The notes beneath the pieces were generated by a model. It was not told the origin of the DNA. It did no database searches and saw only the letters and a list, made by a program, of their open reading frames with translations. A stretch of DNA of 34,823 nt from a virus, in UHGV virus genome UHGV-0108273, one strand, 5' to 3'. Positions 7,034-34,576 of this stretch are shown one piece after another (within the stretch, counting starts at the first letter, position 1; each line of letters opens with the position of its first letter). Position numbers and translations under genes: made by a program.

Positions 7034-7051
7034 TTTGATTTTCCTCCCTTA

Positions 7052-18200: not shown

Positions 18201-19415
18201 CTCAGCAATCGATCTAACTTTTTCCTCAAAAGTATCGGTTTCTACACCAGCTTCATTTATTTTTTTTACAAGCTTATCCCAGTTAGAAGACATCGCGCCT
18301 TCCAATAATTCGTTACGAGATTTCGCTGATGATTCAACCATCTTTCCAATGGTATCTGAAATTCCAGTGAACAATTCTTTGGAGTCTTCAAAATCACCGA
18401 CAAGTATTCTCCAAGTTTGACCCCATCCAGATTGGAGAGATTCTTTTACCGTATCTATCAGCTGTGTGAATGTTTTTACTTTTGAAGCAGCGTCTTCAGC
18501 GTCCTTCGCTAAAGCCATAATATCGTTTGCTTGAGATTCGCTATAACCTTGGGCAATAAGATCGGCCTTACTATATGCGCCAGACAATTGGTTAAGAGTT
18601 TCAGTTAATACCTCGGTCGTTAACCATTCACCTTTTGTTAGGCTTTCTCTAAAGCTGCCATATGTATCAATAGCTTGTTTAGCGCCTGTTCCCAAAAGTT
18701 CAGACGTTCTAACAAGTGCGTCCTGAAATACCTTACCACCCATACCGGCATTAACAACTGAGTTCCAGTCCATAAGACTAACTTTACCTGCCGCCAATGC
18801 CTGAGAAAGCTGATACATCGCAGTAGATGCCTGTTGAGAAGTTGATCCAGAAACTGCGGCCAAGTTCGCAATACCTTTAATAGCATTAACTGAGGTATCA
18901 AGTTTTACACCAGCTGCTGTAAACGTACCGATATTACGAGTCATTTCCGTAAAATTGTAAATCGTCTTATCGGCATATGTATTTAGCTCATCTAAAGCCT
19001 TATTTACAATATCAACATTAGTGCCTTCCTGCCTTGTATTGGATAGAATTGTCTGAATAGCACCAATCTGAGTTTCGTATTCTTGGAAACCGCTTTTAAC
19101 CGGATCTATAGTTAATGCTGATATCATACGTTTACCAGTGTTAACAGCCTGGTTAGTGATGTTTGCTAAAGCAGTTACACCAGCGACCTGTAGTGCTGAA
19201 AATTTAGCCTGAACTGTCTCTATACCACTGCTCATTCCTGCAAAGCTAACACCTTTAGCAGCCTTACCGACATTCTCCAACCCTTTGGAGGCACCAGATA
19301 GATTTAACTTTTGTTTGAGCTTATCGAGAGTTGACATACTGGTTGCGACTCCGCTCTCAAACTGCTTATTGTCGAACCGCATCTCCAAGACTCTGTTGTC
19401 AATAGTCGTACTCAT
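12252..19415 (-). CDS. Tail tape measure protein, 2387 aa, with a peptidoglycan-binding (PG_binding_1-like) domain and three families of internal tandem repeats
   Basis: N-terminal region typical of tape measure proteins; 'GDDVTKVQKALQSLNYDIGDSGADGIFGSATESAIKAFQEANDLEITGIVDDATLKALNEA' matches the PG_binding_1 pattern; long hydrophobic and Gly/Ala/Ser-rich repeat blocks; start overlaps the upstream gene stop (ATGA). Confidence 0.88.
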   Translation of the reverse strand: MSTTIDNRVLEMRFDNKQFESGVATSMSTLDKLKQKLNLSGASKGLENVGKAAKGVSFAGMSSGIETVQAKFSALQVAGVTALANITNQAVNTGKRMISALTIDPVKSGFQEYETQIGAIQTILSNTRQEGTNVDIVNKALDELNTYADKTIYNFTEMTRNIGTFTAAGVKLDTSVNAIKGIANLAAVSGSTSQQASTAMYQLSQALAAGKVSLMDWNSVVNAGMGGKVFQDALVRTSELLGTGAKQAIDTYGSFRESLTKGEWLTTEVLTETLNQLSGAYSKADLIAQGYSESQANDIMALAKDAEDAASKVKTFTQLIDTVKESLQSGWGQTWRILVGDFEDSKELFTGISDTIGKMVESSAKSRNELLEGAMSSNWDKLVKKINEAGVETDTFEEKVRSIAEDHGVNMDEIIKKYGSLEKAFQSGAISSDILKEAVSGLKGELVDLSGVEAGLSKGNTGDDVTKVQKALQSLNYDIGDSGADGIFGSATESAIKAFQEANDLEITGIVDDATLKALNEANESTNKLKDNIDGLIDGITELGGREKIIEGLKNIFKFLGDIIKPIKEAFREIFPPTTVDQVVSMIDRFKAFTDTLKVSEGAASKIKSTFKGIFSAIDIVIEAFKAVGKGALDIIGNFTGLGGGILDATSSFGDFISNVRDSIVEGNLFGDAVDKIVGFLSNGISKIAEFGRSLIESFKISPTLQGFLGFFSGLWNTIKSVGAAIGEAFSDIGNMIADAFGKGDIFEVLNSGLFAGILLAIRNFIKGLSDPFEKISFLDNVKKILDGVKGSLESWQQNLKAGTLLKIAGAIGILAAALFVISGIDEDKLGSSLGAIGGLFVELISALAVLEKINSKSVKPLSGIVSSLSGIARTVQMIGLGAAILILAGAMKIIAGLDWNGVAKGLVGIGGMVAILVAAAKLMNTESKSITKFAGQMLILSAAIAALSGVAKILSSMSWEELAKGGAGILGIVAILVGAAKLMNTESKSITKFAGQMLIMSAAVGILAAVGKSLGSMSWNELAKGGAGILGIVTMLVLASKIMSKGSGSIAKFGGQMLLMASALAILTPVLKSLGSMSWESIGKGLVVLGIALVELSIGLKAMSGSLKGSAALVVAAAGLAILTPVLKSLGSMSWESIVKGLVTLAGAFVVIGVAGALLSPLTPAILGLSAAMAIFAVAIAGIGVGILALSAGFTALATAGTAGATALVASITVIITGILGLIPQIAEVIGRGIVEIAKVIGEYAPQLAESFLKLLLGVLDALEQYAPQIVDSLLGFIIGVINSLAEHTPELISAIMNFVGQVVKGIVDSIGNLDMDTMLKGIGAFGVIGILMKVFAGAGALAGPAMTGVLAVGAVIAEIAVLLAAIGGLSKIPGFSSLVEAGGGLLGKIGNAIGKGIGAFIGGIGEGITGSLPEIGQNIADFMDKLAIASENASGIKSGSFDGVSDLMSAMAEIGFTTVGTSIADIFTLGGTSMEKFETDGVAFFNAMKAISQASAGITIDEAAMGAVINVATKLSELQSSLEPIGGVMDWFSGRDDLATFGTNVGQFIFSMKNAFLGLDGVSFNTEALTSIITGAAELSKLQSSLEPIGGVISWFKGRDDLGTFGVNIGLFIGSMTKAFSSLDGVKINTEAIGIIIDAATKLSGLQSSLENIGGVVDWFTGRDDLGTFGSSVASFMGSMKTAFADLGDTKIDDDSITSIINAATKLAGLQSSLENMGGVIDWFTGKDDLGTFGENIGQFATAMGKLKTGMGEDGISEAVVTSVTNAGSAIIALQEALPEEGWFDGKMNLEEFSKYVEKFSSAMTTFSTDAANINSDGINTAITAAYRIKNLITALADLDASGVSSFAGVGAGDGHLVNIGQAIGKFGESVADIDIAKVNTAVSVALRLKSLIASLVGLDTSGIENFKINSIGKAMQDYGNSVKDMDPGIVSSSISSANRLRNFVSSLTGLDSSGVSNFKIGSIGTTLKSYSKSVENVDSGKVTSSVTAANRLKTFIQGLSSLDSSGVSNFKIGTIGSTLKSYSDSVAGINVGSISSSITAATKIKNFISSLAGLNTSGVASFKTAVSTLGQTSMNSITKSFSGSTSKMSNIGSNLITSFSNGLKSKQALVTSTATNIINSMLKAISSKRSVFGTNGVALMTQFVNGMRSRASSVVNTTTSILSSAVSSTRGYYSSFYSSGSYVASGFVAGIQANIWSAANAAASMAAAASAAARANLAIHSPSRVFMKIGSYVPIGFAKGIGMFGGLVKQSISRMSDNAVNSTQTAMSRISSLLDGDINTQPTIRPVLDLSDIKSGASAINGMLNGTPTLGVMSRLNTINSMMGERIQNGSMDDVVSAINRLRKDLGNVGGVSYNINGLTYDDGSNITEAVKEIVRAAVIERRI
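13250..16800 (-). repeat. Intragenic tandem repeats within the tape measure gene (three repeat families, about 45-62 codons each)
   Basis: Protein repeats 'LSSLDSSGVSNFKIGSIG..LKSYS.SV...', 'LQSSLE.IGGV.DWF.GRDDLGTFG...' and 'AKLMNTESKSITKFAGQMLI.SAA...LSSMSW.ELAKGGAGILGIV' recur 4-6 times. Corresponding DNA stretches recur (e.g. 'ctcccaactcatagatcctaatgattt' near 16000 and 16180). These generate the spurious plus-strand ORFs at 14200..17301. Confidence 0.8.
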
Positions 19416-19804: not shown

Positions 19805-21373
19805 TTACAGTAGCTCGTTAACTCGATCCTGAATTTTCTGAATCATGTTGTGATCGTATCCAGCTTTTGCGAGGGCATTAATTCGTGCATCTCCATTACC
19901 GTATTTTCCGGCAATGACATCACGGGCTACATTATCAATCACTATCTGATTTACTTTCTTCTGCACAGTGTCTGGATTATAACCAGCTTTCTTGAGAGCA
20001 GACACACGAGCATCACCATTACCCCATTTTCCAGCTAAAACCTCTTTAGCTACTTCATCGATAGATTTAGTAGGTTTTGCAGGAGCTTTAAGTAGTTCAT
20101 TCACTTTCTTCTGTACAGTGTCTGGATTATAACCAGCTTTCTTGAGAGCAGACACACGAGCATCACCATTACCCCATTTACCGGCGATTACTTCTTTAGC
20201 AATTTCATCGATAGATTTGGTCGGTTTTGGCGTAGATGTAGGTTTAGATGTTGGTGCTGGTGTGGAAGAACTTTTCGCATATTTTGGTCTAGCAAAACCA
20301 CGAATCATACCCCAGCCAACCGGAATGGTACGTCTTGCTACTGCTTCTCCTCTGTTACCTTCAATCGCTGTGATTTGTCCGTTTGAAACAGATTCCACAT
20401 ACCCGATATGATCAGAATATCCGTCGTTTGGCTGAGTCTTATCATCCCAGTTATAAACAATTACATCACCAGGTTTCGGAGTAATGGTGCCGTCCTCGAC
20501 CCAAATGCCTTTCTGCTTAAAAATCTTAATATGTTCCTCACAACCAACTTCTGTACCGATGAGATCGACTGCTCCGGATTTGATAGCTGCTGCTGATACT
20601 GTACAATCACACCATTCATCATTAGGTTTAATAGCGTATCCGCGAGCCAAAGGTTTGTGAGAATTATAGATGTTAAGAATCTCAATATATTTACCGTTAG
20701 CTTCAGAATAACCGAGCCAACTTCTCATAACATTAAGAACGTCCTGTGCTGTTACACCCAATTCCGTATCCTCCTGTTTTCCGTAAAAATAGTTCATGTC
20801 GACTTTACCTTTAATACCGCCTACAGTTCCGGAACTCGTATACTGATGAACCAAACAACCGTAATCTGCTTTTCCGTTATAATCAGCGAGCCAGAATTTG
20901 TACTGTTTAATCAGATCATGATTATACCAATTTCGATAGTAGTCGATATTTGCGTAGATTCCAGCTTTGTATCCCTGAGATTCTACGTACTCACAAAAGA
21001 TTCTTGTAAAGTTATTACATTCATTTTTACCAAGTCTCACACCTTTTGCAGCTGCTTTCTTGACTGTGTCATATTCGAAATCTGCGAAGATGATTGTGTT
21101 TTTATCAAGACCAGCTTTTCTAACAACATCAACACAGAATTTTGCTTCGTCAAGTGCGCCCTGTTCGTTTAAGGCATAAATAAAATGGTAAGTTCCTATA
21201 ATCGGAATCTTGTTGTTTTTACACCCATTGACATACTCATAGAATTTTGAATCTACTGTCTTCCTGTAAGAAGATCTAAGAATCGCGAACTCTATTCCGG
21301 AGGACTTGACTTTAGAAAAATCTACATCTCCCTGCCAATAGCTGATATCAATTCCTTTCTTCACAATCATCAT
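19805..21373 (-). CDS. Modular peptidoglycan hydrolase: GH25 muramidase + CHAP-like peptidase + three CW_7 (Cpl-7-type) cell-wall-binding repeats
   Basis: N-terminus 'GIDISYWQGDVDF...FAILRSSY...IGTYHF' fits the GH25 signature. Central Cys...His...E/N segment ('WCDCTVSAA...SDHIGYVESVSNGQITAIEGN') is CHAP-like. Three C-terminal repeats 'KSIDE.AKEV.AGKWGNGDAR.SALKKAGYNPDTVQKKVN' match CW_7. No signal peptide seen. Confidence 0.85.
   Translation of the reverse strand: MMIVKKGIDISYWQGDVDFSKVKSSGIEFAILRSSYRKTVDSKFYEYVNGCKNNKIPIIGTYHFIYALNEQGALDEAKFCVDVVRKAGLDKNTIIFADFEYDTVKKAAAKGVRLGKNECNNFTRIFCEYVESQGYKAGIYANIDYYRNWYNHDLIKQYKFWLADYNGKADYGCLVHQYTSSGTVGGIKGKVDMNYFYGKQEDTELGVTAQDVLNVMRSWLGYSEANGKYIEILNIYNSHKPLARGYAIKPNDEWCDCTVSAAAIKSGAVDLIGTEVGCEEHIKIFKQKGIWVEDGTITPKPGDVIVYNWDDKTQPNDGYSDHIGYVESVSNGQITAIEGNRGEAVARRTIPVGWGMIRGFARPKYAKSSSTPAPTSKPTSTPKPTKSIDEIAKEVIAGKWGNGDARVSALKKAGYNPDTVQKKVNELLKAPAKPTKSIDEVAKEVLAGKWGNGDARVSALKKAGYNPDTVQKKVNQIVIDNVARDVIAGKYGNGDARINALAKAGYDHNMIQKIQDRVNELL
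19840..20230 (-). repeat. CW_7 repeat array at DNA level; two copies nearly identical (about 19953..20036 and 20103..20186, period 150 bp)
   Basis: 'ctttcttctg[c/t]acagtgtctggattataaccagctttcttgagagcagacacacgagcatcaccattaccccattt' occurs twice with 1-2 mismatches; the third copy is more diverged. Confidence 0.8.
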
Positions 21374-23789: not shown

Positions 23790-25727
23790 TTAGGCAGTTT
23801 CTTTCACGAATTCAAGAGCTACTGCGGAATACGGTTTAACAAGTGTACCGGAGCAACGTGTCTCCATAAGATACTTCTGCTTGTTGTAATCGATATCGAA
23901 ATCATCGAAGAAGTTGATTTCTCCACCCTTATCTGTACCTACGTTGTAATCTTTAAGATTTACATAGATACCAGCAAGCTCATATGTCTTATTTTCATCG
24001 TCTGTTCTTGTAAGACCTTCCATTACCGGAACCGGAACGATTTCTCTTACGCGAAGAGATGCTGCAAGTTTCTGTACGCTATCATAGATAACACGTCCGT
24101 TTGTATCTTCAATGAGCAAGCAATCTGTAAGCATATCCTCAGACATGAACATATCAGGGTTGCCAGATCCTTTATAATTCTTTCTGGATTTGATGCAAGC
24201 TTTGATGAATGCCTTAGCTTTCTCTTCAGCAGTAGCGGAATCGCTTACATTGATAGCTGCTTTAACTGTGAAAAGATCTTCCATCTTCCAGATAGGTCTG
24301 ATGCAGTCCTCATTGATTTTATCGTTAGCCTCTTCAACCGGATCTCTTCCATCACCGATAAGGAATGCGCGAGCAAGTTCCTCATCAAGCATCATACGAA
24401 CTTCTCTCTTCAGCCATGGAAGAATATCGAAATCTGTAATATCAAGCATGTCATCGCGATCTAATGCCTGTTTCTTGTATACAGTTGTTGGATTTGTTAC
24501 ACGTTTGAGAAGCTTAAATACTTCTTCAATTTTAAGTTTGCCTTTCTGGTATCCCTTTGCTCTAGCCTGTGCTGCTGTGATGTCAGCAAAGATAGTTTTG
24601 ATACGGGAGAACGGTGTGTGATGTACTCCGCCAAGTACTTTTGATACCCAATCGTCATTACGTTTGATAAATTCCGGTTCATTGTTAAGATTCTTTGCAT
24701 CCGGGAATAAGATGTCAATGTCTGTGATACCATGAGCAAGCACTGCCTCTTTAAGAGAACCTGAGCGTTTCGCATCTTCGAAAATCGCAGTCATCTCGGA
24801 GTGTGTAAGCACATCATCTGCCATAGGGGTTTCATTGTCGAATACGTTGTGTTTCATATTTTTGTTTCCTCCTTCATTTTCATCATCTTCTTCGGTTTCA
24901 ACACCAGCATCTTCTAATGCCTGTCCGATCATAGCGTACACAACAGTTTTCTGTTTCTCAGAAAGAGTGTTGAATACATCAGCTACAGTTTCTTCTTTGT
25001 TTTCTCCCTTTGTTTCTTCCTCGGCATGTTTTACTTCTTCCTCAGAATGGGTTACTTCTTCTTTGTCTGGTTTATCATCGTTTTCTTCTTTGATACCAGC
25101 ATCTTCTAATGCCTGTCCGATCATAGCGTACACAACAGTTTTCTGTTTTTCAGAAAGAGTGTTGAATACATCAGCTACAGTTTCGTCCTTATTTTCTTCG
25201 GCATTATGTTTTTTGGTTTCTTCTGCCATTTTTTCTTCTCCTTTCTCAGAAGTATCTGCGTGGAACAATGACTCCACATTTTCGATATATTCGCCTGAGC
25301 TGATATATCCCTCTTCATAAGAATCTTCGCCATGCATCATGACAGACTCTATTACTGCGCCTGGATTAGCACCAGCTAAAACCAAACTAAGCTCACGAAT
25401 GACTCCGTGAACTACATTACTTCCCTGCTGTTTAAGTCTGTTGGCATATATGGAAAATCTATTCACATCACCATGCTGAACCAGCAATTTAGCATTCTGC
25501 CCTGATTCCGTATCGTTAAATGTGCAATATGCATACACACCTTCGTCCCTGTTTTCCAGCAAGGCATGACCGAGCACTTCATCTACGCTATTATGCTGAT
25601 GATTCCAAACTAACGGTACAGTTTCACCATCGCACTCTTTGAATGCATCTTTCATGATGACTCTACCGTCCGCACACAGCATGTCAGCTTTAGTAGCCCA
25701 GCCAGAACAATCATATGACTTAGCCAT
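23790..25727 (-). CDS. Fused prohead protease - acidic linker - HK97-fold major capsid protein (645 aa)
   Basis: N-terminal about 150 aa resembles prohead proteases (..VPLVWNHQHNSVDEVLGHA..); central acidic region with a duplicated 30-aa unit; C-terminal about 350 aa of capsid-protein size and composition; preceded by GGAGGCAGAAAATCAAAATGG. Confidence 0.7.
   Translation of the reverse strand: MAKSYDCSGWATKADMLCADGRVIMKDAFKECDGETVPLVWNHQHNSVDEVLGHALLENRDEGVYAYCTFNDTESGQNAKLLVQHGDVNRFSIYANRLKQQGSNVVHGVIRELSLVLAGANPGAVIESVMMHGEDSYEEGYISSGEYIENVESLFHADTSEKGEEKMAEETKKHNAEENKDETVADVFNTLSEKQKTVVYAMIGQALEDAGIKEENDDKPDKEEVTHSEEEVKHAEEETKGENKEETVADVFNTLSEKQKTVVYAMIGQALEDAGVETEEDDENEGGNKNMKHNVFDNETPMADDVLTHSEMTAIFEDAKRSGSLKEAVLAHGITDIDILFPDAKNLNNEPEFIKRNDDWVSKVLGGVHHTPFSRIKTIFADITAAQARAKGYQKGKLKIEEVFKLLKRVTNPTTVYKKQALDRDDMLDITDFDILPWLKREVRMMLDEELARAFLIGDGRDPVEEANDKINEDCIRPIWKMEDLFTVKAAINVSDSATAEEKAKAFIKACIKSRKNYKGSGNPDMFMSEDMLTDCLLIEDTNGRVIYDSVQKLAASLRVREIVPVPVMEGLTRTDDENKTYELAGIYVNLKDYNVGTDKGGEINFFDDFDIDYNKQKYLMETRCSGTLVKPYSAVALEFVKETA
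24903..25184 (-). repeat. Near-perfect direct duplication of about 90 bp (copies at about 24903..24992 and 25095..25184, period 192 bp) inside the capsid gene linker
   Basis: The two copies differ at about 1 nt; each encodes 'ETVADVFNTLSEKQKTVVYAMIGQALEDAG' in the minus-strand frame, embedded in E/D/K-rich sequence. Confidence 0.85.
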
Positions 25728-26076: not shown

Positions 26077-27348
26077 TCATAGGTCCGAAATTGGTGTGTC
26101 ACCTAATGAGGGTTCTTCCTCTGGTGGAATATCTTCTTCACTTATATCCGGAGTTGGATTCAATCCAGTTCCTGTTTGATTGATGTTGCTATTTACTAAC
26201 TGGTCAGCTTTTGGATCATCTGATGGTTTCATACCAATAATCTGTCGAACCTCATTAGCTGTAAGTATTTCATTCTGCGTAAACACTCCAGCGATTTCAG
26301 CCAGTTTACTAAGAGGAACGAGTCTAAACGAATCTCTGAAGAATTTGATAGTCTGATTCTGAGATCGTGCTGTCTTTGTTAAAAACTTGCGTTTCATCTC
26401 ATCGACGATTGCTGCGACAATTGGCTCAATAGTCCTTGAATAGTAGTTCAGCATTTCTTCTTCGCTCGCTGATCCATCGAGTATCGCCTGTGTGATTCCA
26501 AGCTGGCTGTATAGTTGAGCAGTTAGATATTCCACTTGTTTCATCAGGTTATTGTCGAGAGGTCTGTTTAACTGCACTATCTTTTCAGTTCCATCAACAT
26601 AGCCAATACCGTAAGTGGAACCGCTTAGCTGTTGCTCCAGGTCCGCACGTCTTTCATTAGCTAGTTTTCGCCGAGCTTCAGATTTAATAGAATATGGTAG
26701 CTGAATAATCATGTCCAATTTTCCACTACTGATACGTTCGTCCATTCTATCGAGAAGGGCAAGTTTTCGCGTAAGACGCTGCATGGTAGAATTATGCTCA
26801 TTGATAACCGCATATAAAGGATTCTCAACTATAGCTACCATTTTCTTTTCAAGCTTAATGTCTTCTCGTTCTCCTGTTCGTTCATTGTAAACTCTAACTT
26901 TCACATGGTTTGGATACCATTCAAGAATTTTACCAGTTCGCATGGAAAGTATTTTATATGATTCAGTTTGAGATGGATCTATATCTGTATCAACAGGAAC
27001 TATTGCTACACAGCCCTCGTCAAGCATAGACATAACGATATCTTGTGTGAATGCTCTACCAGTCTGATCGATATTCGCTTCAAGATTCAGACATTTATTA
27101 AGAGTCGAATCAATCTTTTCTATAAATCTACCGTTACTGTCTATACGACAGTGATTAATATTTATAGAAGAGACATCCAAAGCTATTCGATTAAAAATAG
27201 CAGTAACAACAGATCGCTCATTACCCCTAGTGAATCTCGGCCTATCCGGTCTATTTGAATATCCTGGACCAATGTTACGAGAGTCATATGTCGGATCTCG
27301 GTTCATGAAAGCATTCCACGAATGCCGAAGTCTATCTATAAAATCCAT
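26077..27348 (-). CDS. Portal protein (HK97-family-like), 423 aa
   Basis: Size and position between the terminase and capsid genes; N-terminal region 'ERSVVTAIFNRIALDVSSININH' resembles the conserved portal N-terminal helix; acidic C-terminus; preceded by AGGAGGTAAAATCAAAATGG. Confidence 0.65.
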   Translation of the reverse strand: MDFIDRLRHSWNAFMNRDPTYDSRNIGPGYSNRPDRPRFTRGNERSVVTAIFNRIALDVSSININHCRIDSNGRFIEKIDSTLNKCLNLEANIDQTGRAFTQDIVMSMLDEGCVAIVPVDTDIDPSQTESYKILSMRTGKILEWYPNHVKVRVYNERTGEREDIKLEKKMVAIVENPLYAVINEHNSTMQRLTRKLALLDRMDERISSGKLDMIIQLPYSIKSEARRKLANERRADLEQQLSGSTYGIGYVDGTEKIVQLNRPLDNNLMKQVEYLTAQLYSQLGITQAILDGSASEEEMLNYYSRTIEPIVAAIVDEMKRKFLTKTARSQNQTIKFFRDSFRLVPLSKLAEIAGVFTQNEILTANEVRQIIGMKPSDDPKADQLVNSNINQTGTGLNPTPDISEEDIPPEEEPSLGDTPISDL

Positions 27349-27362
27349 TTTGATTTTACCTC

Positions 27363-27959
27363 CTATGGTGTTGATGGATTAAGACTTTCAGCGATTTTAG
27401 CGTCTATGTATGAATGTATTTCAGCTATATCCGCTTCCGTCCAATAATCAGTACCTCTGACAGGTGTCTTCCCATCAGTACCAGGATCTCCTTTTGGTCC
27501 AGCATCACCAGTATCACCTTTTGGTCCCTGAACACCCTGTTCACCTTGAGGTCCGGTTAATCCTGTATCTCCCTTTGGACCCTGAATACCTTGTTCACCT
27601 TGAGGTCCAGTAGCTCCGGTATCACCTTTTGGTCCCTGGATACCCTGTTCACCTTTCGGGCCTGTAGCTCCGGTATCACCTTTCGGACCTTTAAGACTAG
27701 CTAACCATTCAGTCTCGCTTCCTTCGAAACCAGTAGAAAGCGCTACTTGATAAGCAGAATCACCTGGATCTCCTTTTTCACCAGGAGGGCCAGGAGTGGT
27801 TGAACCAGTTCCTCCGTTAGTAATGAGCTCGCATAATTCCCAAAGCAATTCTTCAGCTCTAGACTGAGGTCTCGGCAATCCTTCAGTACCTTTCTGTAAG
27901 ATAGTATTTTTCATATATTCTTCAAATCTACTATCCGGTATGTATGTTTCATCGATCAT
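27363..27959 (-). CDS. Collagen-like triple-helix repeat protein (198 aa)
   Basis: About 25 uninterrupted Gly-X-Y triplets (GPKGDTGATGPKGEQGIQGPKGDTGATGPQGEQG...) flanked by non-collagen N- and C-terminal segments; located between the terminase and portal genes. Confidence 0.75.
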   Translation of the reverse strand: MIDETYIPDSRFEEYMKNTILQKGTEGLPRPQSRAEELLWELCELITNGGTGSTTPGPPGEKGDPGDSAYQVALSTGFEGSETEWLASLKGPKGDTGATGPKGEQGIQGPKGDTGATGPQGEQGIQGPKGDTGLTGPQGEQGVQGPKGDTGDAGPKGDPGTDGKTPVRGTDYWTEADIAEIHSYIDAKIAESLNPSTP

Positions 27960-27977
27960 TTTGTCACCTCTAAGTGC

Positions 27978-28223
27978 TTAGAGTTCAATTCCTTCAATGG
28001 CTGCTCTTACCTCAAGACATCTGAGATACTCGCCCATGTAACGTTTCTGCTCCTGAAGTTTTGCTATCGGGCAAGTTGGTTTGAAGTCGAGAACTCCTGC
28101 TTCATGTTTTACAAGCATCTGATGTAATTTGTCATATCGAATCTTTGTCTGATAATACTCAGCTTTAAAACGATCTTTATAATCGGAACTATTCATAAGT
28201 TCAATCGTGTCTTTTAACTCCAT
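27978..28223 (-). CDS. Hypothetical small protein (81 aa)
   Basis: ORF with AAGGAGGTAAATTCAAAATGG initiation context; no recognisable motif. Confidence 0.45.
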   Translation of the reverse strand: MELKDTIELMNSSDYKDRFKAEYYQTKIRYDKLHQMLVKHEAGVLDFKPTCPIAKLQEQKRYMGEYLRCLEVRAAIEGIEL

Positions 28224-28312: not shown

Positions 28313-30046
28313 CTATTCAAAAGCATCCTTGTTCAGTTTATAAGCAACGAACGCATCCATAAGTGCTGCAACGCAGTCAATCTTATGCTCTCGTTTGCGT
28401 TTATAAAGTTTTCTGTTACCGTTGGTGTCTTCAAGGGTGATACAGTTTCCCATAGCAAACGACATGATCTCTTCATCGAATCGAAGCATTCTCTCTTCAG
28501 AAAGGTTCTTTAATTCTCCAAGAGGAATAGATTCTGTCTTTGCTCCCTGAATTACTTTCTCAATACCAAACGGACCATTCTCGGTTTCCCATCTATTAAC
28601 AAATTCCTTTGCTCCATACGGGTCAAAGCCGAAACACCGAACATCGTAATCACTATCGATAATATGTTTATCCAGATCGTCGTAAACTTGCATCATATCG
28701 AGGATCGCACCGTCGAGAACTATCAAACTACCTTCATTCATAAACTGATCGTATTTCGTCCGCATAGCTGCTGGTAATTTCATCAGAGTTAATGAAGAAA
28801 TATAGTTTCTAGTCTTAATACCGAACGTTCCATCCTGTAAAGGGAACATAAATGAGAATGAGCAAAAGTCGTCTCCCTGCGATAAGTCTGCTCCCATAGC
28901 ACAAGGTAATCCCCAGTAATCTCTACGTCTATGAGGTATTGTCTCTTCATAAGTAAAGTAATAGGTATAACCTTCCAACGGGATTCCAAATCTTTTCGCA
29001 AGAATATCGTTCTTTGCTGCTGGGTTCTGTTCGGCTCTTTCCACGTCAAGCTGATATGCTTCAGGGCTAACGGTCTTTCCAATATTCGGATTAGCCTTAA
29101 GCCACATTTCTGGATTTCCTACTTCCTCAATATCATCGAGCTTATACCACCAGATTGATACGTGAGGATTAGTGTACTCGTCTCGAAGAATCTTAGATAA
29201 TTCCATTTTGATTGTGTCGCCGCTACCATTTCGTACAGTACCTTCTGAACTGGTTGCCACAATAAGATAATCATCATTTTTTGAGGCACCCTGTTCAACA
29301 GCACCAACGACGTCTTCTCGTACATCTCCTGATAGCCATTCATCTATAGTGGAGATCTTATCTCTTCGTGACTGCAATTTATCGATGGACATTGGTAGAA
29401 CTTCGATTATTGAATTTGTAAGGAAGTTCTCTACACCCTTTTTCGTACTAGCTAACTTCTGTCGATTCGCCCTTGAGCCTGTAGTATTCTGTAAAGAGCC
29501 CTCTGTTAAGAATTTAAACAAAGGACCTCTAGCTCTTGCTATAGCTGTACGAATAGGAGCTAATGTTGCTTCTGATTGTCTCATTGTCGGCGCGGTTACT
29601 AATTGCTGAGTAGTACTCGTGTCGACATTTAAAAAATAAGCCTGAATACATGCCGCATACATCGATTTAGCAGCACCTCTGGCTACGATCAAATACTGTT
29701 TGTTAACCAGTCGTTTCTTAATTCTCTTGGTAACATATCGTCCTTCGTCGTAGTCATAGACTGATCGTTCAACGAAGTAATACCAACCGAAAATCTGTTC
29801 CGCCCAAAGTTTAAACGAATCAAGTAAATGTAGATCTTCGCCATCAGTTAATGTGAGTTCGTTCTCACAATAATTAATAAAACCCTGGATCGCTTGGTCG
29901 TCATACCAAATTCCAGGGTTAGCTATAAGATCATCTATTCGATTCATCTCCATCGAGATTTCTTTACATATTGGGATTTCTCCTCGCATGACCGCCTCTC
30001 TAAAGCGGCCGTAATATTTCGGAACAGCCGTGTTTGAAAGACTCAT
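28313..30046 (-). CDS. terL: Terminase large subunit (577 aa)
   Basis: Size; N-terminal ATPase region with a Walker A-like 'ARGAAKS' segment; acidic-residue-rich C-terminal nuclease-like region; position upstream of the portal gene. Confidence 0.85.
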   Translation of the reverse strand: MSLSNTAVPKYYGRFREAVMRGEIPICKEISMEMNRIDDLIANPGIWYDDQAIQGFINYCENELTLTDGEDLHLLDSFKLWAEQIFGWYYFVERSVYDYDEGRYVTKRIKKRLVNKQYLIVARGAAKSMYAACIQAYFLNVDTSTTQQLVTAPTMRQSEATLAPIRTAIARARGPLFKFLTEGSLQNTTGSRANRQKLASTKKGVENFLTNSIIEVLPMSIDKLQSRRDKISTIDEWLSGDVREDVVGAVEQGASKNDDYLIVATSSEGTVRNGSGDTIKMELSKILRDEYTNPHVSIWWYKLDDIEEVGNPEMWLKANPNIGKTVSPEAYQLDVERAEQNPAAKNDILAKRFGIPLEGYTYYFTYEETIPHRRRDYWGLPCAMGADLSQGDDFCSFSFMFPLQDGTFGIKTRNYISSLTLMKLPAAMRTKYDQFMNEGSLIVLDGAILDMMQVYDDLDKHIIDSDYDVRCFGFDPYGAKEFVNRWETENGPFGIEKVIQGAKTESIPLGELKNLSEERMLRFDEEIMSFAMGNCITLEDTNGNRKLYKRKREHKIDCVAALMDAFVAYKLNKDAFE

Positions 30047-30089: not shown

Positions 30090-30662
30090 TTAACGACCAT
30101 AACGAGCATTGTTCAATATTCTTGACACATAGGTTCGTCCAGTCTTTTTGTATGCTTCTTGAGATTCGAGCAACATAGCATCTGCCTTATCAGATAATCT
30201 TGAAGCATCTTCGAACATTTTATTATACTCCTTAGCATCTGCTGTTTTGTTCTGTGCAGAAGCTATAAATCTTGAAACTGCGTTTTTACCAAGTTTCTTG
30301 CGCTGCTCTTTAACCTGATTCCACTTTGCATCAGCAACATCACTAGCTTTTGATGCTGCATCAACCTTTTTAGAATAATCTTTTACTGCTGATTTTTTGG
30401 CATCTACTTTCGCTTTCTTTATGTCGGCTTTTGCTTCTCTTAAAGAAGCCTTAGCTGCATCTCTTTGGATCTTATTACCTTTTCGAATAGCTCCAATACC
30501 GTTCAACTGACCAGAATTCCTAGCTGCTTTACGAGCTTCTAATCCATCAGCTCTGGCTTTCTTAGAGGCTTGTCTAAAGGTCGGCTGATCGCTTCTCCTT
30601 CTAACTCCCCACTTCATGCCTTTTACACCGTAGTGCATTAATTTGTCATCATAGTATCCCAT
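30090..30662 (-). CDS. Paralog 4 of a four-gene family with a conserved N-terminal H[YH]GVKGMKWGVRR motif; highly basic Lys/Ala-rich body (190 aa)
   Basis: 'LMHYGVKGMKWGVRRR' near the N-terminus; remainder K/A/R-rich coiled-coil-like; strong RBS AAGAGGTGAAAATTCAAAATGG. Confidence 0.6.
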   Translation of the reverse strand: MGYYDDKLMHYGVKGMKWGVRRRSDQPTFRQASKKARADGLEARKAARNSGQLNGIGAIRKGNKIQRDAAKASLREAKADIKKAKVDAKKSAVKDYSKKVDAASKASDVADAKWNQVKEQRKKLGKNAVSRFIASAQNKTADAKEYNKMFEDASRLSDKADAMLLESQEAYKKTGRTYVSRILNNARYGR

Positions 30663-30691
30663 TTTGAATTTTCACCTCTTATCTCAAATAG

Positions 30692-31828
30692 TTATGTGTT
30701 CCCGGACAGCATCCCAATGATTTCTCTATCCGATAGTTTCGTGTTCGGATGTTGTTTACGATAATTATTTATCGCTTTTGTGTTAAAAGCATATGATACT
30801 CCTACTGGAACAGTTGCTCCCAAAGCATACGTAGCTCCCTTTTTTGAGCCAGTTATTATTTTGTTGACGTAGTCTTCAGCTTTCTGTATTTTCTTAGCTT
30901 GATCAAGATTCTTTGAAATCTCATCAACCGTTAATTCTCTAAAATTAGTTACAGAAATCTTTCCTTTCGCATCAAATACTATGAGAGGATTTTTTGTCTT
31001 GTAGTCATTAAACTTCATATCGTTAATGTCTTGAATAGCATTATATCCTTTTGATTTCATAGCACTATAAAATGTTTTGGATGAATATGAATCATGATTC
31101 CCAGCTAATTTAGAATTGAAATTTTCATACAGTTTTGATAACTCACTATCTGTATACGTTCCGAATTTAGCAAATCTTATAGGCTTTTCATTCGAACTTA
31201 TAGAGCTTGGTAGATTATGTACATACTCTGCGAACTTTTTATCATTCTTATAAAGATCTTTGAATACTTTCTTCGCATTATTCTTAGAAGCAACTTTGAC
31301 ATCATCTTTAACTAATAAAGACATCACATATGCTTTTCCAGTCTGTTGATATCGTTCTCTACCAAGTTTACCTGCATATTTTATGTTATCGGTTTTCTTG
31401 TATGAAGCGAAGAAATTATCGTATAACTTTCCTCCGGTATCTTTCATCTCTACTCGTTGCAACAACTTTCCAGACTTTATAGTTTTATCACAGTAATCTT
31501 TAATGTACTTATTTGTTGCATATGCAGCTATCGAAGCAACTGTGATACCGGCTGTTATGGCTATGATTTTCTCAGTTTTGATACGTCTATCAGCCGCCAT
31601 CTTAGCCTGTTTAGGACTCATCCCTTTGCTAATATACTTAGATTCAATCCTCGATCTGTGACTCGATCTATTTGTGCTCTTATCGGATTCGTTTTGGTAT
31701 TTATTCTTTCCAGCATTAGTGAGAGAACCGTCTTTATTTTGGTAACGTCTTATTCCCCATTTCATGCCTTTTACACCGTAATGGTAGAGTTCATCTGTAG
31801 AAGTTATTCTTGAAATTGCATACTCCAT
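30692..31828 (-). CDS. Paralog 3 of the same family (378 aa), with a predicted transmembrane segment
   Basis: 'ELYHYGVKGMKWGIRRYQNKDGSLTNAGKNKYQ'; hydrophobic stretch 'IIAITAGITVASIAAYATNKYI'; homologous to paralog 2 along most of its length (e.g. 'YSAMKSKGYNAIQDINDMKFNDYKTKNPLIVFDAKGK'). Confidence 0.6.
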   Translation of the reverse strand: MEYAISRITSTDELYHYGVKGMKWGIRRYQNKDGSLTNAGKNKYQNESDKSTNRSSHRSRIESKYISKGMSPKQAKMAADRRIKTEKIIAITAGITVASIAAYATNKYIKDYCDKTIKSGKLLQRVEMKDTGGKLYDNFFASYKKTDNIKYAGKLGRERYQQTGKAYVMSLLVKDDVKVASKNNAKKVFKDLYKNDKKFAEYVHNLPSSISSNEKPIRFAKFGTYTDSELSKLYENFNSKLAGNHDSYSSKTFYSAMKSKGYNAIQDINDMKFNDYKTKNPLIVFDAKGKISVTNFRELTVDEISKNLDQAKKIQKAEDYVNKIITGSKKGATYALGATVPVGVSYAFNTKAINNYRKQHPNTKLSDREIIGMLSGNT

Positions 31829-31845
31829 TTTGACTCACCTACCTC

Positions 31846-32904
31846 TTAACTCAAATACTTATCAAGTTTACGGTTCACATAAGAATCGCACTCCGACACA
31901 CTCTTCGTTCCGAGCTTAGATACGAAACCAACTGTATTAGCTCCGATTTCCTTAACGATTCTTTCTGAATTGTATTTTCGATACAGCTTGTCTACAATTT
32001 TAGGATTCGCTTCGGTTACAGACTGAAGTTTCACCGAATCTGTATCAAACACAATCATAGGTCTTTTCGCATGATAACTTGAATACTCCTTATCGTTATA
32101 GTCAAGTAAAGCATTATAACCTTTCTTCTTTAACTCTGAGTAGAAACGATTTTGTGCAGCTATCTCTTGTTGATTATGGTTTACAAGGGATAGATTCAGA
32201 GCCTTATAGATAGCCACCTTTTCAGAATTTCTAAGTTTACTTGGATCTTTCTCCAAAGCATTTTGAGCTTGTTTAAATAGAACCTGTTGAGTAGGTCGCC
32301 GCATCTTCTCTTTAGAGTCAGCTATCGAAGCCTCTACATTCTTCTTAAACTCTGGCTCTTTCAATAAGTTTGCGGTTATGTAGCCAGCGTTCTCATCTGA
32401 CGGAACTTTCAACTTCTTCACAGTTTCCAGTTTCAACTGATAAACCTTCATATTATTGCTTTTATCTCTTAGAGATTTTGCAACGTTGAAATCTTCCTCA
32501 CTGCCGGTTGCCTCAGCCTGTTTCTCAGCACGTCTTGCATCCGAAGCAGCTCTACTCGTAAGATTCTTACCAAATAATCCGAGATACTTATCCATGTCTT
32601 TCTTTTTATATGTAGCGTAGAATGCGAAATTCTCGAATTCTTTTGAAGTCTGGATTCGAGCGAATGTAGTACCTTTTCTTAAATATGTATCAACGTACTG
32701 CTTACCTGTGACTTGAGTTTTGACAGTGTTTTTTAATTCAGAAACTTTCATACTCATTAACGTAGTCTTTTTCTGTGTGATATGAGTATCTGAAGAATTC
32801 TGATATCGTTTCTTACCAGATGGTGTCAATGTTCCGTCAGCATACTGATATCTCCTAACACCCCACTTTTGACCTTTAACGCCGTGATGATAAAGTTCTT
32901 CCAT
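31846..32904 (-). CDS. Paralog 2 of the same family (352 aa)
   Basis: 'MEELYHHGVKGQKWGVRRYQYADGTLTPSGKKRYQ'; shares C-terminal blocks with paralog 3 ('YSELKKKGYNALLDYNDKEYSSYHAKRPMIVFDTDS'). Confidence 0.6.
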   Translation of the reverse strand: MEELYHHGVKGQKWGVRRYQYADGTLTPSGKKRYQNSSDTHITQKKTTLMSMKVSELKNTVKTQVTGKQYVDTYLRKGTTFARIQTSKEFENFAFYATYKKKDMDKYLGLFGKNLTSRAASDARRAEKQAEATGSEEDFNVAKSLRDKSNNMKVYQLKLETVKKLKVPSDENAGYITANLLKEPEFKKNVEASIADSKEKMRRPTQQVLFKQAQNALEKDPSKLRNSEKVAIYKALNLSLVNHNQQEIAAQNRFYSELKKKGYNALLDYNDKEYSSYHAKRPMIVFDTDSVKLQSVTEANPKIVDKLYRKYNSERIVKEIGANTVGFVSKLGTKSVSECDSYVNRKLDKYLS

Positions 32905-32907
32905 AAC

Positions 32908-33453
32908 TTACTTACCACTTAGCGCTTTGATGGCTAAAGCAATGCTTAATGCCGACCCGGTTACTGCTAAAACATCACCGGTGGTTTCTAGCATTCTACT
33001 AGCATACTCGCGTCCTTTCGTGGTTTTTTGAGGAGCAAACATATCATTATATTGTTTCTCCAAAAGAGCTCTATTAATCTGATCACGCATTTCTTTATCG
33101 GTCATGTTGCTTAAGTCCATCTTTTGTTTCGGATTATTTCTGATAGACTTATCGGTCATGGTCTTTATATTACGGCTCAGTCCAGCAGTAGCATCGGTCA
33201 AAGATTTGGTTCTTTCCAAGTCTTCTTTAACATATCGTCTAGCATCTGCTATGTTGTCAGTTCGACCGTTCTTTTTAGACTGCTTATAATAAGTACCAGT
33301 AGACTCATCATACTTATTAAATTCTTTTTCTCTAGAGTCTCTTTCATATCTCTTCTGACCTTTTTCAGTAAGAGTACCATCCTTGTTCTGGTATCTTCTT
33401 ACTCCCCATTTCATGCCTTTAATTCCATGATGATAGAGTTCATTATTGTCCAT
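32908..33453 (-). CDS. Paralog 1 of the same family (181 aa), with a hydrophobic C-terminal tail
   Basis: 'ELYHHGIKGMKWGVRRYQNKDGTLTEKGQKRYE'; C-terminal 'VLAVTGSALSIALAIKALSGK'; RBS AAAGGAGGTAATTCAAAATGG. Confidence 0.6.
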   Translation of the reverse strand: MDNNELYHHGIKGMKWGVRRYQNKDGTLTEKGQKRYERDSREKEFNKYDESTGTYYKQSKKNGRTDNIADARRYVKEDLERTKSLTDATAGLSRNIKTMTDKSIRNNPKQKMDLSNMTDKEMRDQINRALLEKQYNDMFAPQKTTKGREYASRMLETTGDVLAVTGSALSIALAIKALSGK

Positions 33454-33808
33454 TTTGAATTACCTCCTTTCCAGTTTGTTCTGCCTCCACATTAAGTCTC
33501 CATTCAAGCTCGTTGATCATCTGTTTCATGGCTTCCATTACAGCAGAGCTAAGAGGAGGATCGAAAATAAGTCTAACCTTTAGATACATATAGGTTTTTA
33601 CAGCCTCGAAGTTTTTGTTATCGGTCGGAAGAAATTCATCCCATGTAGTAAACTTATCCGTGATATGAAATCCATTACTAGGACCAACTCCCAACTGACT
33701 AAGTATCATGAATACAGAATTGATATGCATGATGATATCAGAATCAAAGTGCTCATAATCTTCTGTTATACCGAGCATCTTTTTAACTGATGTAAGTATA
33801 CTTTCCAA
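33443..33808 (-). CDS. Hypothetical protein (121 aa), possibly a gp6-like head-tail connector or a small packaging protein
   Basis: N-terminal 'VKKMLGITEDYEHFDSDIIMHINSVFMILSQLG' loosely resembles connector-family N-termini; uncertain. Confidence 0.4.
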   Translation of the reverse strand: MESILTSVKKMLGITEDYEHFDSDIIMHINSVFMILSQLGVGPSNGFHITDKFTTWDEFLPTDNKNFEAVKTYMYLKVRLIFDPPLSSAVMEAMKQMINELEWRLNVEAEQTGKEVIQNGQ

Positions 33809-33825
33809 TATTCACACCTCCTTCG

Positions 33826-34239
33826 CTATCGTTTCCAGGGACAAGTGTCATTTGGTTTTCGTTCTATTGGTTCTGTTATAAGTAAGCTCTCGTCTCCGTA
33901 GTGAATAGCGTTGTGGGTATTGAGTGTTGTAGAAATTACATTCTCTGGATCGAATACTTTCGGATCTCGTAGAAGAACGTCTTCTACTGAAATTGGATTT
34001 ATATGATGCACGAGGATCTTACCCACTATCTCATAACCTTCACAGGCCAAATCACAGCCATTATCTCGAATAATTATTTCGTTACGAAAGCGCTTCCATT
34101 CTGTCGTACGATAAAGCATCTGATTTAAATATCGATCATAGCCGAATGTCTCAACACCAACTTGTCCGCCGAGTTGTAAGTATCTAAAACGATCTAGAAA
34201 AGTTGGAAGCTTAATCAATTCGGAATATGTTCTATTCAT
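33826..34239 (-). CDS. HNH endonuclease (137 aa from the internal start MNRTYSEL)
   Basis: HNH-like 'HHINPISVEDV...NTHNAIHYG' with Cys pairs (C..C). Start moved from the track's 34269 to the ATG at 34237-34239, which has GGAGGAG about 8 nt upstream and overlaps the upstream stop (ATGAATAG). Confidence 0.7.
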   Translation of the reverse strand: MNRTYSELIKLPTFLDRFRYLQLGGQVGVETFGYDRYLNQMLYRTTEWKRFRNEIIIRDNGCDLACEGYEIVGKILVHHINPISVEDVLLRDPKVFDPENVISTTLNTHNAIHYGDESLLITEPIERKPNDTCPWKR

Positions 34240-34576
34240 CTTCATACTCCTCCGGATCTCCCTGACCATTGTAATTTCTGAAAGCCTTCATAGCGTTCTC
34301 AACGAGAACCTTGTATTCTTTCTCATCCTCTATAGCATTGGTTTTAGCTTCTAACAGTTTATTCTCTTTTTTAAGTTTCTCTTTCTCTAACTCTGCTTTT
34401 GTAGTACCAAGTTTCAGAAAATGTGTGATGACCTGAGAAGAAGCAGTGCCTTCTATTAACTGCCTTTCAGCTAGGTCCACTGCCAATGAAATCATCTGGT
34501 TTTCTCTAGCTTCTGGAGATAAAGCAGGTCTCATCTTCTTACTTTCTTTCGATGAGCTTTTGCTTAGTTTAGGCAT
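34232..34576 (-). CDS. Hypothetical small protein (114 aa), possibly a terminase small subunit or DNA-binding packaging factor
   Basis: First gene after a 247-bp intergenic region; strong RBS GAGGAGG; basic N-terminus, helical middle, acidic C-terminus; functional assignment is by position only. Confidence 0.45.
   Translation of the reverse strand: MPKLSKSSSKESKKMRPALSPEARENQMISLAVDLAERQLIEGTASSQVITHFLKLGTTKAELEKEKLKKENKLLEAKTNAIEDEKEYKVLVENAMKAFRNYNGQGDPEEYEDE

Follow-up and report, generated by a model that had tools for sequence, protein, structure and literature searches.

In UHGV virus genome UHGV-0108273, whose 34,823 nucleotides (nt) are called the window below, four consecutive minus-strand genes at 30090–33453 encode proteins that share a short N-terminal peptide and continue into bodies that are mostly unrelated. 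We term the genes and their products p1 to p4, and the peptide the tag; it matches the Pfam family DUF7211 (PF23847). Tagged proteins proved widespread in related phages. There their genes lie mostly in the head and packaging block, vary in number from locus to locus and can carry effector-like domains, and several tagged units may be fused into a single polyprotein. We tentatively interpret p1–p4 as head cargo directed by the tag, or as polymorphic phage effectors, built on a very large, uncharacterised and phage-specific motif family; we give this reading not quite an even chance of being right.

The shared peptide and the bodies behind it

The motif L-x-H-[HY]-G-[VI]-K-G-x-K-W-G-[VI]-R-R is present in all four proteins, at residues 6–20 of p1 (LYHHGIKGMKWGVRR, 33394–33438), 4–18 of p2 (LYHHGVKGQKWGVRR, 32851–32895), 14–28 of p3 (LYHYGVKGMKWGIRR, 31745–31789) and 8–22 of p4 (LMHYGVKGMKWGVRR, 30597–30641), always on the minus strand. 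A preliminary description of this DNA, made from its letters, had noted a near-identical N-terminal segment in the four proteins, and the approximate positions given there agree with ours. In p1–p3 the tag is extended by Y-Q-x-x-D-G-[ST]-L-T-x-x-G-x-x-[RK]-Y. p4 has the core of ~22 residues only, lacking YQNKDG[ST]LT, so the longer motif including DG[ST]LT that had been ascribed to the whole set holds for three of its members. The same description did not recognise the motif as a named family. It matches DUF7211, a 25-position model with a gathering score of 27 bits, at 41.7 bits in p1, 27.1 in p2 (which only just passes), 40.4 in p3 and 42.8 in p4; judged by these scores, the tag matches are far beyond chance in all four proteins. 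The consensus of the family covers ~25–30 residues and reads [DN]-E-L-[YA]-H-[HY]-G-[IV]-K-G-[MQ]-K-W-G-V-R-R-[YF]-Q-N-x-D-G-[ST]-L-T.

As far as sequence comparison goes, DUF7211 is the sole family that demonstrably contains the four proteins, and it has no assigned function. A search for a well-characterised family, one of the checks suggested earlier, returned nothing beyond this uncharacterised one, and no small-terminase profile. There were zero matches for p1–p4 in NCBIfam and PADLOC, megablast found no match to the region among GenBank phages, and a literature search turned up no paper on DUF7211 or on the motif string KGMKWG. In profile scans of the four proteins the tag showed no signal-peptide or known wall-binding profile. 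Choline-binding repeats and YD repeats were also tried as identities for the tag and were rejected for want of profile support.

Conservation of the tag is a matter of peptide rather than of DNA. The preliminary description had seen conservation at both levels, quoting a 26-mer that was said to recur at each tag. With up to three mismatches this 26-mer occurs at two of the four tag sites; the other two fail, and the mean identity of the coding DNA is 66%. In the 16 core codons synonymous differences equal or exceed nonsynonymous ones (9 vs 2 between p1 and p2, 10 vs 3 between p2 and p3), which indicates that selection acts on the tag peptide and not on the DNA. The peptide is equally conserved in actinophages with a GC content of 65%. 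We rejected a role for the 26-mer as a recombination or regulatory site on these two grounds, the mostly synonymous differences and the retention of the peptide at high GC.

In AlphaFold2 (AF2) models of p1 and p3, the predicted local distance difference test score (pLDDT) of the tag is below 50. Low pLDDT combined with strong selection on the peptide, in phages of both Actinobacteria and Firmicutes, would be expected if the tag takes up its fold on a partner. We read the tag as a portable docking peptide, one that is probably unstructured alone.

The coordinates of the open reading frames (ORFs) bear out the earlier report of four consecutive same-strand genes for proteins of 181, 352, 378 and 190 residues, and place them on the minus strand. 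Each has an ATG start: p1 at 33453–32908, p2 at 32904–31846, p3 at 31828–30692 and p4 at 30662–30090. A Shine-Dalgarno sequence is clear before three of the genes and weaker for p2. The intergenic gaps ahead of p1, p2, p3 and p4 are -11, 3, 17 and 29 nt, and p4 is followed after 43 nt by the gene for the large terminase (TerL). Promoter- and terminator-like matches across the p1–p4 region were no more numerous than in shuffled sequences. Because the gaps are so small and no such signal stands out, p1–p4 and TerL are best taken as one tight late operon.

The four proteins had been called paralogs, which is too broad. Only the bodies of p2 and p3 are detectably homologous (BLASTP, 27% identity over 229 residues, E = 3e-14), as the preliminary description had itself proposed for this pair. 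By BLASTP the p1 and p4 bodies have no detectable homology to the other bodies of the four, and p1 falls in a conserved family of its own. All four proteins are basic, with isoelectric points (pI) of 9.7–10.2.

p1 is the conserved "core" member and belongs to phrog_32444. At least 7,829 homologues were found; among the best 120 listed, full-length identity is 66–96%, mostly 66–77%. The family, of ~180 residues and made up mainly of metagenomic relatives, has a conserved C-terminal module, MDLSxMTDxEMRxxINRxxLExQYxDMF...KGREYAS..., followed by a hydrophobic helix. In p1 this helix spans residues 161–179 (32917–32973, minus strand; Kyte-Doolittle 1.8) and corresponds to the hydrophobic C-terminal tail that had been seen in the letters. 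The AF2 model of p1 consists mostly of long helices, at low confidence (mean pLDDT 65.6). In p4 the core tag is followed by a helical body that is, as had been noted, basic and rich in Lys and Ala (15.8% of each, pI 10.2).

p3 and p2 both belong to phrog_7502. In p3 the tag leads through a basic linker to a hydrophobic helix at residues 88–106 (31511–31567, minus strand; Kyte-Doolittle 1.55), the predicted transmembrane helix of the preliminary description, and from there to an alpha+beta core and C-terminal helices. p2 has the tag and a body homologous to that of p3, without the hydrophobic helix. In the AF2 model of p3 (mean pLDDT 78.8) the tag is disordered; behind it come a linker of helical structure, the hydrophobic helix and a core at residues 112–330 (30839–31495, minus strand). 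Most of the core scores above 90; it is confidently predicted, with an alpha+beta fold that bears a weak resemblance to that of ADP-ribosyltransferases (ARTs). The corresponding region of p2, at about residues 68–287 (32044–32703, minus strand), was identified by BLASTP and by its aligned R, S and D..D residues. The p3 family comprises 2,949 matches at E ≤1e-3, and most of the best 120 listed are 40–52% identical to p3. Across 50 homologues D267 and D270 are invariant and R125 and S181 nearly so, and all four are kept in p2. The body has no conserved Glu; an Asp stands in place of the catalytic Glu of the ART triad (R-S-E or H-Y-E).

The best PDB match to the p3 model by Foldseek was chain B of the cyanophage A4 pre-ejectosome (E = 8.9e-4, probability 0.98), an ejection protein that is stored inside the capsid (PMC12002296). 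Diphtheria-type toxins came next in the list, at low probability. In a viral structure library the model matched actinophage homologues, one of them fused to a GNAT domain, and a protein with a "large polyvalent protein associated domain" (LPD; E = 2.9e-4). No ART family profile appeared in a Pfam scan of 50 p2/p3-family members at E values up to 5, and no ART family in a PDB profile search with the p3 family at E values up to 10. We therefore call the p2/p3 core ART-like in predicted fold, and by fold only, because no sequence profile ties the family to known ARTs. In PDB sequence searches, p3, its family profile, the connector-like protein and the protease-capsid fusion described below gave nothing usable, nor is there a solved virion of this lineage that would show mature termini or internal proteins.

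Tagged genes, polyproteins and junctions in related phages

By sequence comparison, its head module identifies this phage as a member of the supercluster of Lactococcus phage 1706, ReqiPepy6 and FP_oengus. The supercluster holds phage 1706, the Rhodococcus phages ReqiPepy6 and ReqiPoco6, the Faecalibacterium phage FP_oengus and several Arthrobacter, Gordonia, Microbacterium and Streptomyces clusters, which share a conserved block of HNH, head-to-tail connector, TerL, portal and capsid maturation protease (bioRxiv 10.1101/842583). With the tag as probe we found 80 loci in IMG/VR and 73 in species genomes of GTDB (gut Clostridia for the most part), and surveyed them together with three annotated phage records and the window. 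Their ORFs were searched with a tag hidden Markov model and with core-protein profiles. This is the motif search with gene neighbourhoods that had been proposed at the outset, and it showed the tag to be widespread and tied to the head and packaging module.

The survey yielded 431 tagged proteins from 157 sources (156 loci and the window), in 236 clusters at 50% identity. The tag lies within 40 residues of the start in 411 of them, and 307 of the 431 have bodies unlike any of p1–p4. The earlier idea of one N-terminal module on divergent bodies, some of which are toxin or enzyme domains, thus extends well beyond the window. Loci have one to eight tagged genes, most often two to four, and a p1-type protein is present once per locus in 74 loci.

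We located 427 tagged genes, from 154 related loci, relative to the core genes. The slot between TerL and portal holds 183 and the slot between connector and TerL 142, so that at least 76% are in one or the other. Most of the remainder are at contig ends adjoining connector, TerL or portal genes, and only 11 are without a core neighbour. The common order is phrog_4259–HNH–connector–[tag]n–TerL–[tag]m–portal–protease/major capsid protein (MCP)–DUF7253; in a number of loci the connector directly abuts TerL, leaving the first slot empty. Placement beside the large terminase had been described as atypical. In this supercluster it is the rule, most tagged genes falling in the two slots that flank TerL.

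ReqiPepy6 encodes eight DUF7211 proteins. Seven of them, gp015–gp021, come from tandem genes between TerL and portal, each starting ...FLAHYGVKGMKWG...; gp013 (451–2082 of locus L001), upstream of TerL, has a LigT-like 2H phosphoesterase domain and, behind it, an internal tag at residues 352–368 and a p1-like module. Gene 13 of Gordonia phage Fazel, annotated "RNA ligase", likewise encodes a 2H phosphoesterase and then a p1-like module. Some 2H phosphoesterases are known anti-defence enzymes of phages. Among long or unusual members, Pfam scans picked up Gln_amidase (papain-fold toxin 1) in 9 of 87 and 3 of 66, as well as GNAT acetyltransferase, 2H phosphoesterase, DUF5662, DUF6883 and Gly-zipper domains; most of the tagged bodies in these scans had no Pfam match. 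A hydrophobic helix was found in 26% of tagged proteins vs 3.8% of core proteins, and some relatives are annotated "membrane protein". Lactococcus phage 1706 gp07, which has two tag copies, is annotated "structural protein", and there were weak matches to phrog_35934, "virion structural protein".

Tag similarity is slightly higher within a genome than between genomes (0.638 vs 0.584, p = 5e-4), as either gene conversion or adaptation to a shared partner could produce. When 1.84 billion cluster representatives at 50% identity were searched exhaustively with a profile, 36,228 proteins matched at E ≤1e-3 and 17,245 at E ≤1e-10.

One surveyed locus (L004, IMGVR_UViG_3300045988_045688, 96.6 kb) has the head-module order of the window and four tagged genes of equal lengths. 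Over the 45 residues compared, the N-terminus of its p1 shows 100% identity, and this is probably the same or a nearly identical phage.

The top scorers of the exhaustive search are polyproteins with two to five tags at a median copy spacing of ~220 residues. P0241 (1,335 residues, five tag copies) is one of the single-ORF polyproteins with three to five copies, along with P0242 and P0243. P0250, of 545 residues, has three units, the first p1-like, and is an uninterrupted ORF in the connector–TerL slot (5913–7550 of locus L159, ENA contig k119_804685); it is the only tagged gene of its phage. Stop-codon read-through was considered as the origin of such polyproteins and rejected, P0250 being uninterrupted under the standard code. 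Since P0250 and the two-tag gp07 of 1706 exist beside single-tag genes, tagged units can be encoded separately or fused.

The polyproteins have a characteristic junction, [KR]-H-[SDA]-[DA]-[ILF], upstream of their internal tags, the median distance to the tag His being 13 residues. Of 209 segments upstream of internal tags, 123 contain H-[SDA], compared with 35 of 447 control segments from the same proteins (odds ratio 17, p = 4e-44). A Pfam scan found no peptidase domain in the polyproteins, so any processing would need a protease in trans. A candidate for this enzyme, and for a docking partner of the tag, is encoded in the window at 23790–25727 (minus strand). It is the fused protease-capsid protein that the preliminary description had already mentioned, a 645-residue fusion of prohead protease (Peptidase_S78) and MCP (Phage_capsid).

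Two near-invariant sites that resemble the junctions recur in this protease-MCP family, at domain borders and outside the protease domain. L-[YF]-H156-[SAG]-D-[DE] has its His in 94 of 113 sequences. V-L-[ST]-H309-[SA]-[DE] has its His in 106 of 113 and lies ~30 residues before the capsid-profile region, a position where a maturation cut would be expected. In the fusion of the window there are four H-[SA]-[DE] sites (H156, H227, H234 and H309), all in an acidic linker (24795–24812, 25254–25271 and 25020–25058, minus strand); these are candidate maturation cleavage sites, similar to the junctions of the DUF7211 polyproteins. The invariant H132 was rejected as a cut site, because its position within the S78 domain makes a catalytic role more likely. 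The linker also contains an exact 30-residue duplication, ETVADVFNTLSEKQKTVVYAMIGQALEDAG, at residues 182–211 and 246–275 (25095–25184 and 24903–24992, minus strand). This duplicated acidic stretch between the S78 and capsid parts is probably a scaffold-like region built into the fusion. By their likeness to the linker sites, the polyprotein junctions may be prohead-protease sites at which the units are parted inside the procapsid.

Readings of the tag and comparison with known systems

The account we prefer, which we think has nearly as good a chance of being right as wrong, is that the tag docks variable cargo or ejection proteins into the procapsid, working like the T4 capsid-targeting sequence or the MuF toxins while belonging to neither. 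Tagged proteins would be made late, alongside terminase, portal and the protease-capsid fusion, and the tag would recruit any attached protein into the assembling procapsid, its partner probably being the portal or the scaffold-like linker of the fusion. Where relatives have fused units, the prohead protease would cut them at [KR]-H-S-[DA] junctions. At the next infection the tagged proteins would be ejected from the head along with the DNA. Among the four of the window, p1, the conserved core member, may have a pilot or ejection role with a membrane-active C-terminal helix; p2 and p3 could supply an ART-like enzyme or effector core; and the basic, Lys/Ala-rich p4 might be comparable to the basic internal proteins of T4. 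A wider claim would make DUF7211 a general capsid-loading tag across the siphophage supercluster of Actinobacteria and Firmicutes, present on single genes or on polyprotein units cut at [KR]-H↓S-[DA]-type sites, with its proteins packed and injected. We consider this possible, though we lean against it.

Several observations weigh against cargo loading. The sole hints of encapsidation are the annotation of 1706 gp07 and the weak phrog_35934 matches, neither of which is a direct virion observation, and the "structural protein" label of ReqiPepy6 gp019 derives from similarity only. The ART resemblance of p2 and p3 is weak (Z ≤7.3, ~10% identity, no sequence-profile link and no catalytic Glu). 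A hydrophobic helix is found in only about a quarter to a third of members. The proposed cleavage sites come from likeness between motifs, and the H-[SA]-[DE] site is absent from p1–p4, so the tags of the window may stay attached. A few tagged genes follow lysin, holin or tail-fibre genes instead of lying in the head module (L118 8210–14097, L133 9986–10429, L145 9980–10405), with no terminase or portal within 8–10 kb. Finally, p1 is conserved end to end, which suits a fixed structural role better than variable cargo.

That last point fits an alternative in which the tag anchors stoichiometric head-completion, portal-plug or neck-proximal parts to the portal or connector and the bodies are architectural. 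The single p1-type protein in each of 74 loci, the position of the genes among connector, terminase and portal, and the structural annotation of 1706 gp07 would all agree with such fixed building blocks. They agree poorly with a copy number of one to eight and with bodies that are freely replaced (236 clusters; 307 of 431 unlike p1–p4), and neither toxin or enzyme domains nor the fusion and fission of polyproteins would be expected, so that we think this alternative unlikely. It seems similarly improbable that the proteins are never packaged and act late in the cell or at its membrane, the tag being a membrane-binding, wall-binding or regulatory hairpin and the functions being lysis timing, superinfection exclusion, host takeover or, on release at lysis, an attack on neighbouring bacteria as polymorphic toxins. 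Such a role might explain the enrichment of hydrophobic helices, the "membrane protein" annotations of relatives, the toxin domains of some bodies, and the holin or lysin genes adjoining the tagged genes of L118, L133 and L145. Yet at least 76% of tagged genes are in the packaging and head block and not in the lysis block, the gaps of at most 43 nt hold no immunity-sized ORFs between p1–p4, the tag has neither a signal-peptide nor a known wall-binding profile, and the polyprotein junctions look like sites in the capsid-protease fusion.

Two further alternatives make the genes part of the terminase or of the scaffold. p1–p4 sit directly upstream of TerL, the usual place of a small terminase, and profile scans recognised no small terminase in the module. 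TerL is the most conserved protein of the block and the tag is likewise conserved, and p4 is basic; a small-terminase or terminase-accessory function, with a tag that binds TerL, might be read from this. We give it very little credence: tagged genes number one to eight and occur on both sides of TerL, several loci have the connector abutting TerL, the bodies are unrelated, with toxins or hydrophobic helices in some, and p1–p4 match no terminase-small profile. The phrog_4259 and HNH genes would be a more plausible candidate for the small terminase, or for a cos-cleavage or packaging accessory. Scaffolding proteins for the protease-fused capsid protein could be helical, charged and elongated, as the p1 and p4 bodies are, and would be co-expressed with head genes. 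The fusion has its own scaffold-like acidic linker with an internal duplication, however, and variable number, enzyme domains and hydrophobic helices are a misfit for scaffolds, which makes this explanation highly improbable as well.

T4 provides one of the functionally closest parallels to docking of cargo by the tag. The T4 capsid-targeting sequence is a short N-terminal tag of ~10 residues on the internal proteins IPI–III and on the ART Alt; packaging has been shown, and the tag is removed by the prohead protease at L/I-x-E. Both systems put a short N-terminal tag on otherwise unrelated proteins, and both include small basic proteins (cf. p4) and an ART or ART-like enzyme (cf. p2 and p3). 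There is no sequence similarity between the tags, and p1–p4 have no cleavage site after theirs. T4 is a myovirus with a separate scaffold core, whereas the module here is of siphovirus type with a protease-capsid fusion, in which packaging of p1–p4 would still be conjecture. Short, disordered and conserved peptides suffice to bring unrelated proteins into an HK97-fold shell in encapsulins (cargo-loading peptides) and in HK97 (the C-terminal capsid-targeting tail of its protease), where they bind a known pocket of the shell protein. They offer an analogy of mechanism only, with no sequence similarity to the DUF7211 tag.

MuF polymorphic toxins of temperate phages have a conserved N-terminal module and variable toxins, including ADP-ribosyltransferases, and have been hypothesised to be loaded into the head and injected; 89% of their genes are followed by an immunity-sized ORF (Jamet et al. 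2017, PMC5576092). The likeness lies in a conserved N-terminal module joined to C-terminal bodies that vary (toxins or enzymes), and in genes that belong to the packaging module, near portal and terminase; the MuF prototype, SPP1 gp7, is a portal-bound head protein. The differences are many. Pfam found no MuF domain (Phage_Mu_F, Phage_min_cap2 or related) in p1–p4 or in 16 head-module proteins nearby. What the proteins here share is a peptide of ~25 residues, against a MuF domain of ~100–250 residues. Tagged genes precede TerL or portal, while MuF genes are immediately downstream of portal; there are several tagged genes per genome; and gaps of -11 to 43 nt around p1–p4 leave no room for an immunity ORF. 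On none of the features tested, whether domain, position or immunity ORF, do p1–p4 qualify as MuF proteins.

Polyvalent proteins of phages and conjugative elements, reportedly described by Iyer, Burroughs, Anand, de Souza and Aravind in J Bacteriol in 2017, are said to concatenate effector domains that are predicted to be delivered with the DNA and then processed. The structural match of p3 to an LPD-containing protein (E = 2.9e-4) and the polyproteins of two to five DUF7211 units in relatives recall them. The units here are usually separate genes, each tagged, and the window proteins are single units. DUF7211 polyproteins also differ in having no processing peptidase domain, and to our knowledge a repeated DUF7211 tag is not among the described polyvalent-protein domains. 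As for ART-fold toxins (diphtheria toxin, MbcT, Tse6/Tne2 and RES toxins), the p2/p3 body conserves the order R...S...D. It differs from them in having no Pfam or PDB profile match and in having Asp for the catalytic Glu.

Should the tag prove to be a packaging signal, a large group of Gram-positive siphophages would have its first defined capsid-targeting peptide. We know of few targeting signals of this kind: the T4 capsid-targeting sequence, the HK97 protease tail, P1 Dar and MuF/gp7. Such a signal would explain the block of "hypothetical protein" genes that flanks the terminase in hundreds of actinobacteriophage and gut-phage genomes, would make tens of thousands of candidate injected effectors or anti-defence enzymes identifiable, and would provide a portable tag of ~30 residues usable for loading foreign proteins into phage capsids. 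The predicted protease site amounts to a testable processing rule for protease-capsid fusions. Were the tag a general loading signal, the tagged clusters, at least 36,000 of them, would be a largely unexplored store of injected effectors (ART-like, deamidase, GNAT and 2H phosphoesterase). Even if the tag is no packaging signal, its 36,228 clusters at 50% identity make DUF7211 one of the largest phage-specific motifs still uncharacterised.

Neighbouring genes in the window

The minus-strand order in the window is phrog_4259 (114 residues), HNH, Phage_connect_2, p1–p4, TerL, a crAss001_48-like gene, a collagen-repeat gene, portal, an ORF of 111 residues, the S78 and Phage_capsid fusion, and DUF7253. 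The preliminary description had p1 flanked by HNH. p1 is directly preceded by the connector-like gene (Phage_connect_2, 33443–33808, minus strand), a homologue of 1706 gp06 that forms the upstream edge of the first DUF7211 slot, and HNH is one gene further upstream. TerL (28313–30046, minus strand) divides the two slots of related phages, and portal (26077–27348, minus strand), a candidate docking partner, is the downstream edge of the second.

In the window the slot between TerL and portal (27363–28223, minus strand) is filled by the crAss001_48-like gene, of 81 residues, and the collagen-repeat (Gly-X-Y) gene, of 198 residues; many relatives have DUF7211 genes in it. The phrog_4259 and HNH genes (34232–34576 and 33826–34269, minus strand) overlap by 38 nt, and the pair is found upstream of the connector in nearly all related loci. 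No family match was found for the 114-residue phrog_4259 protein.

Within the tail module, a lysin gene of 522 residues (GH25, CHAP and three CW_7 repeats; 19805–21373, minus strand) lies just upstream of the tape-measure ORF of 2387 residues (12252–19415). This could be a virion-associated lysin instead of an endolysin.

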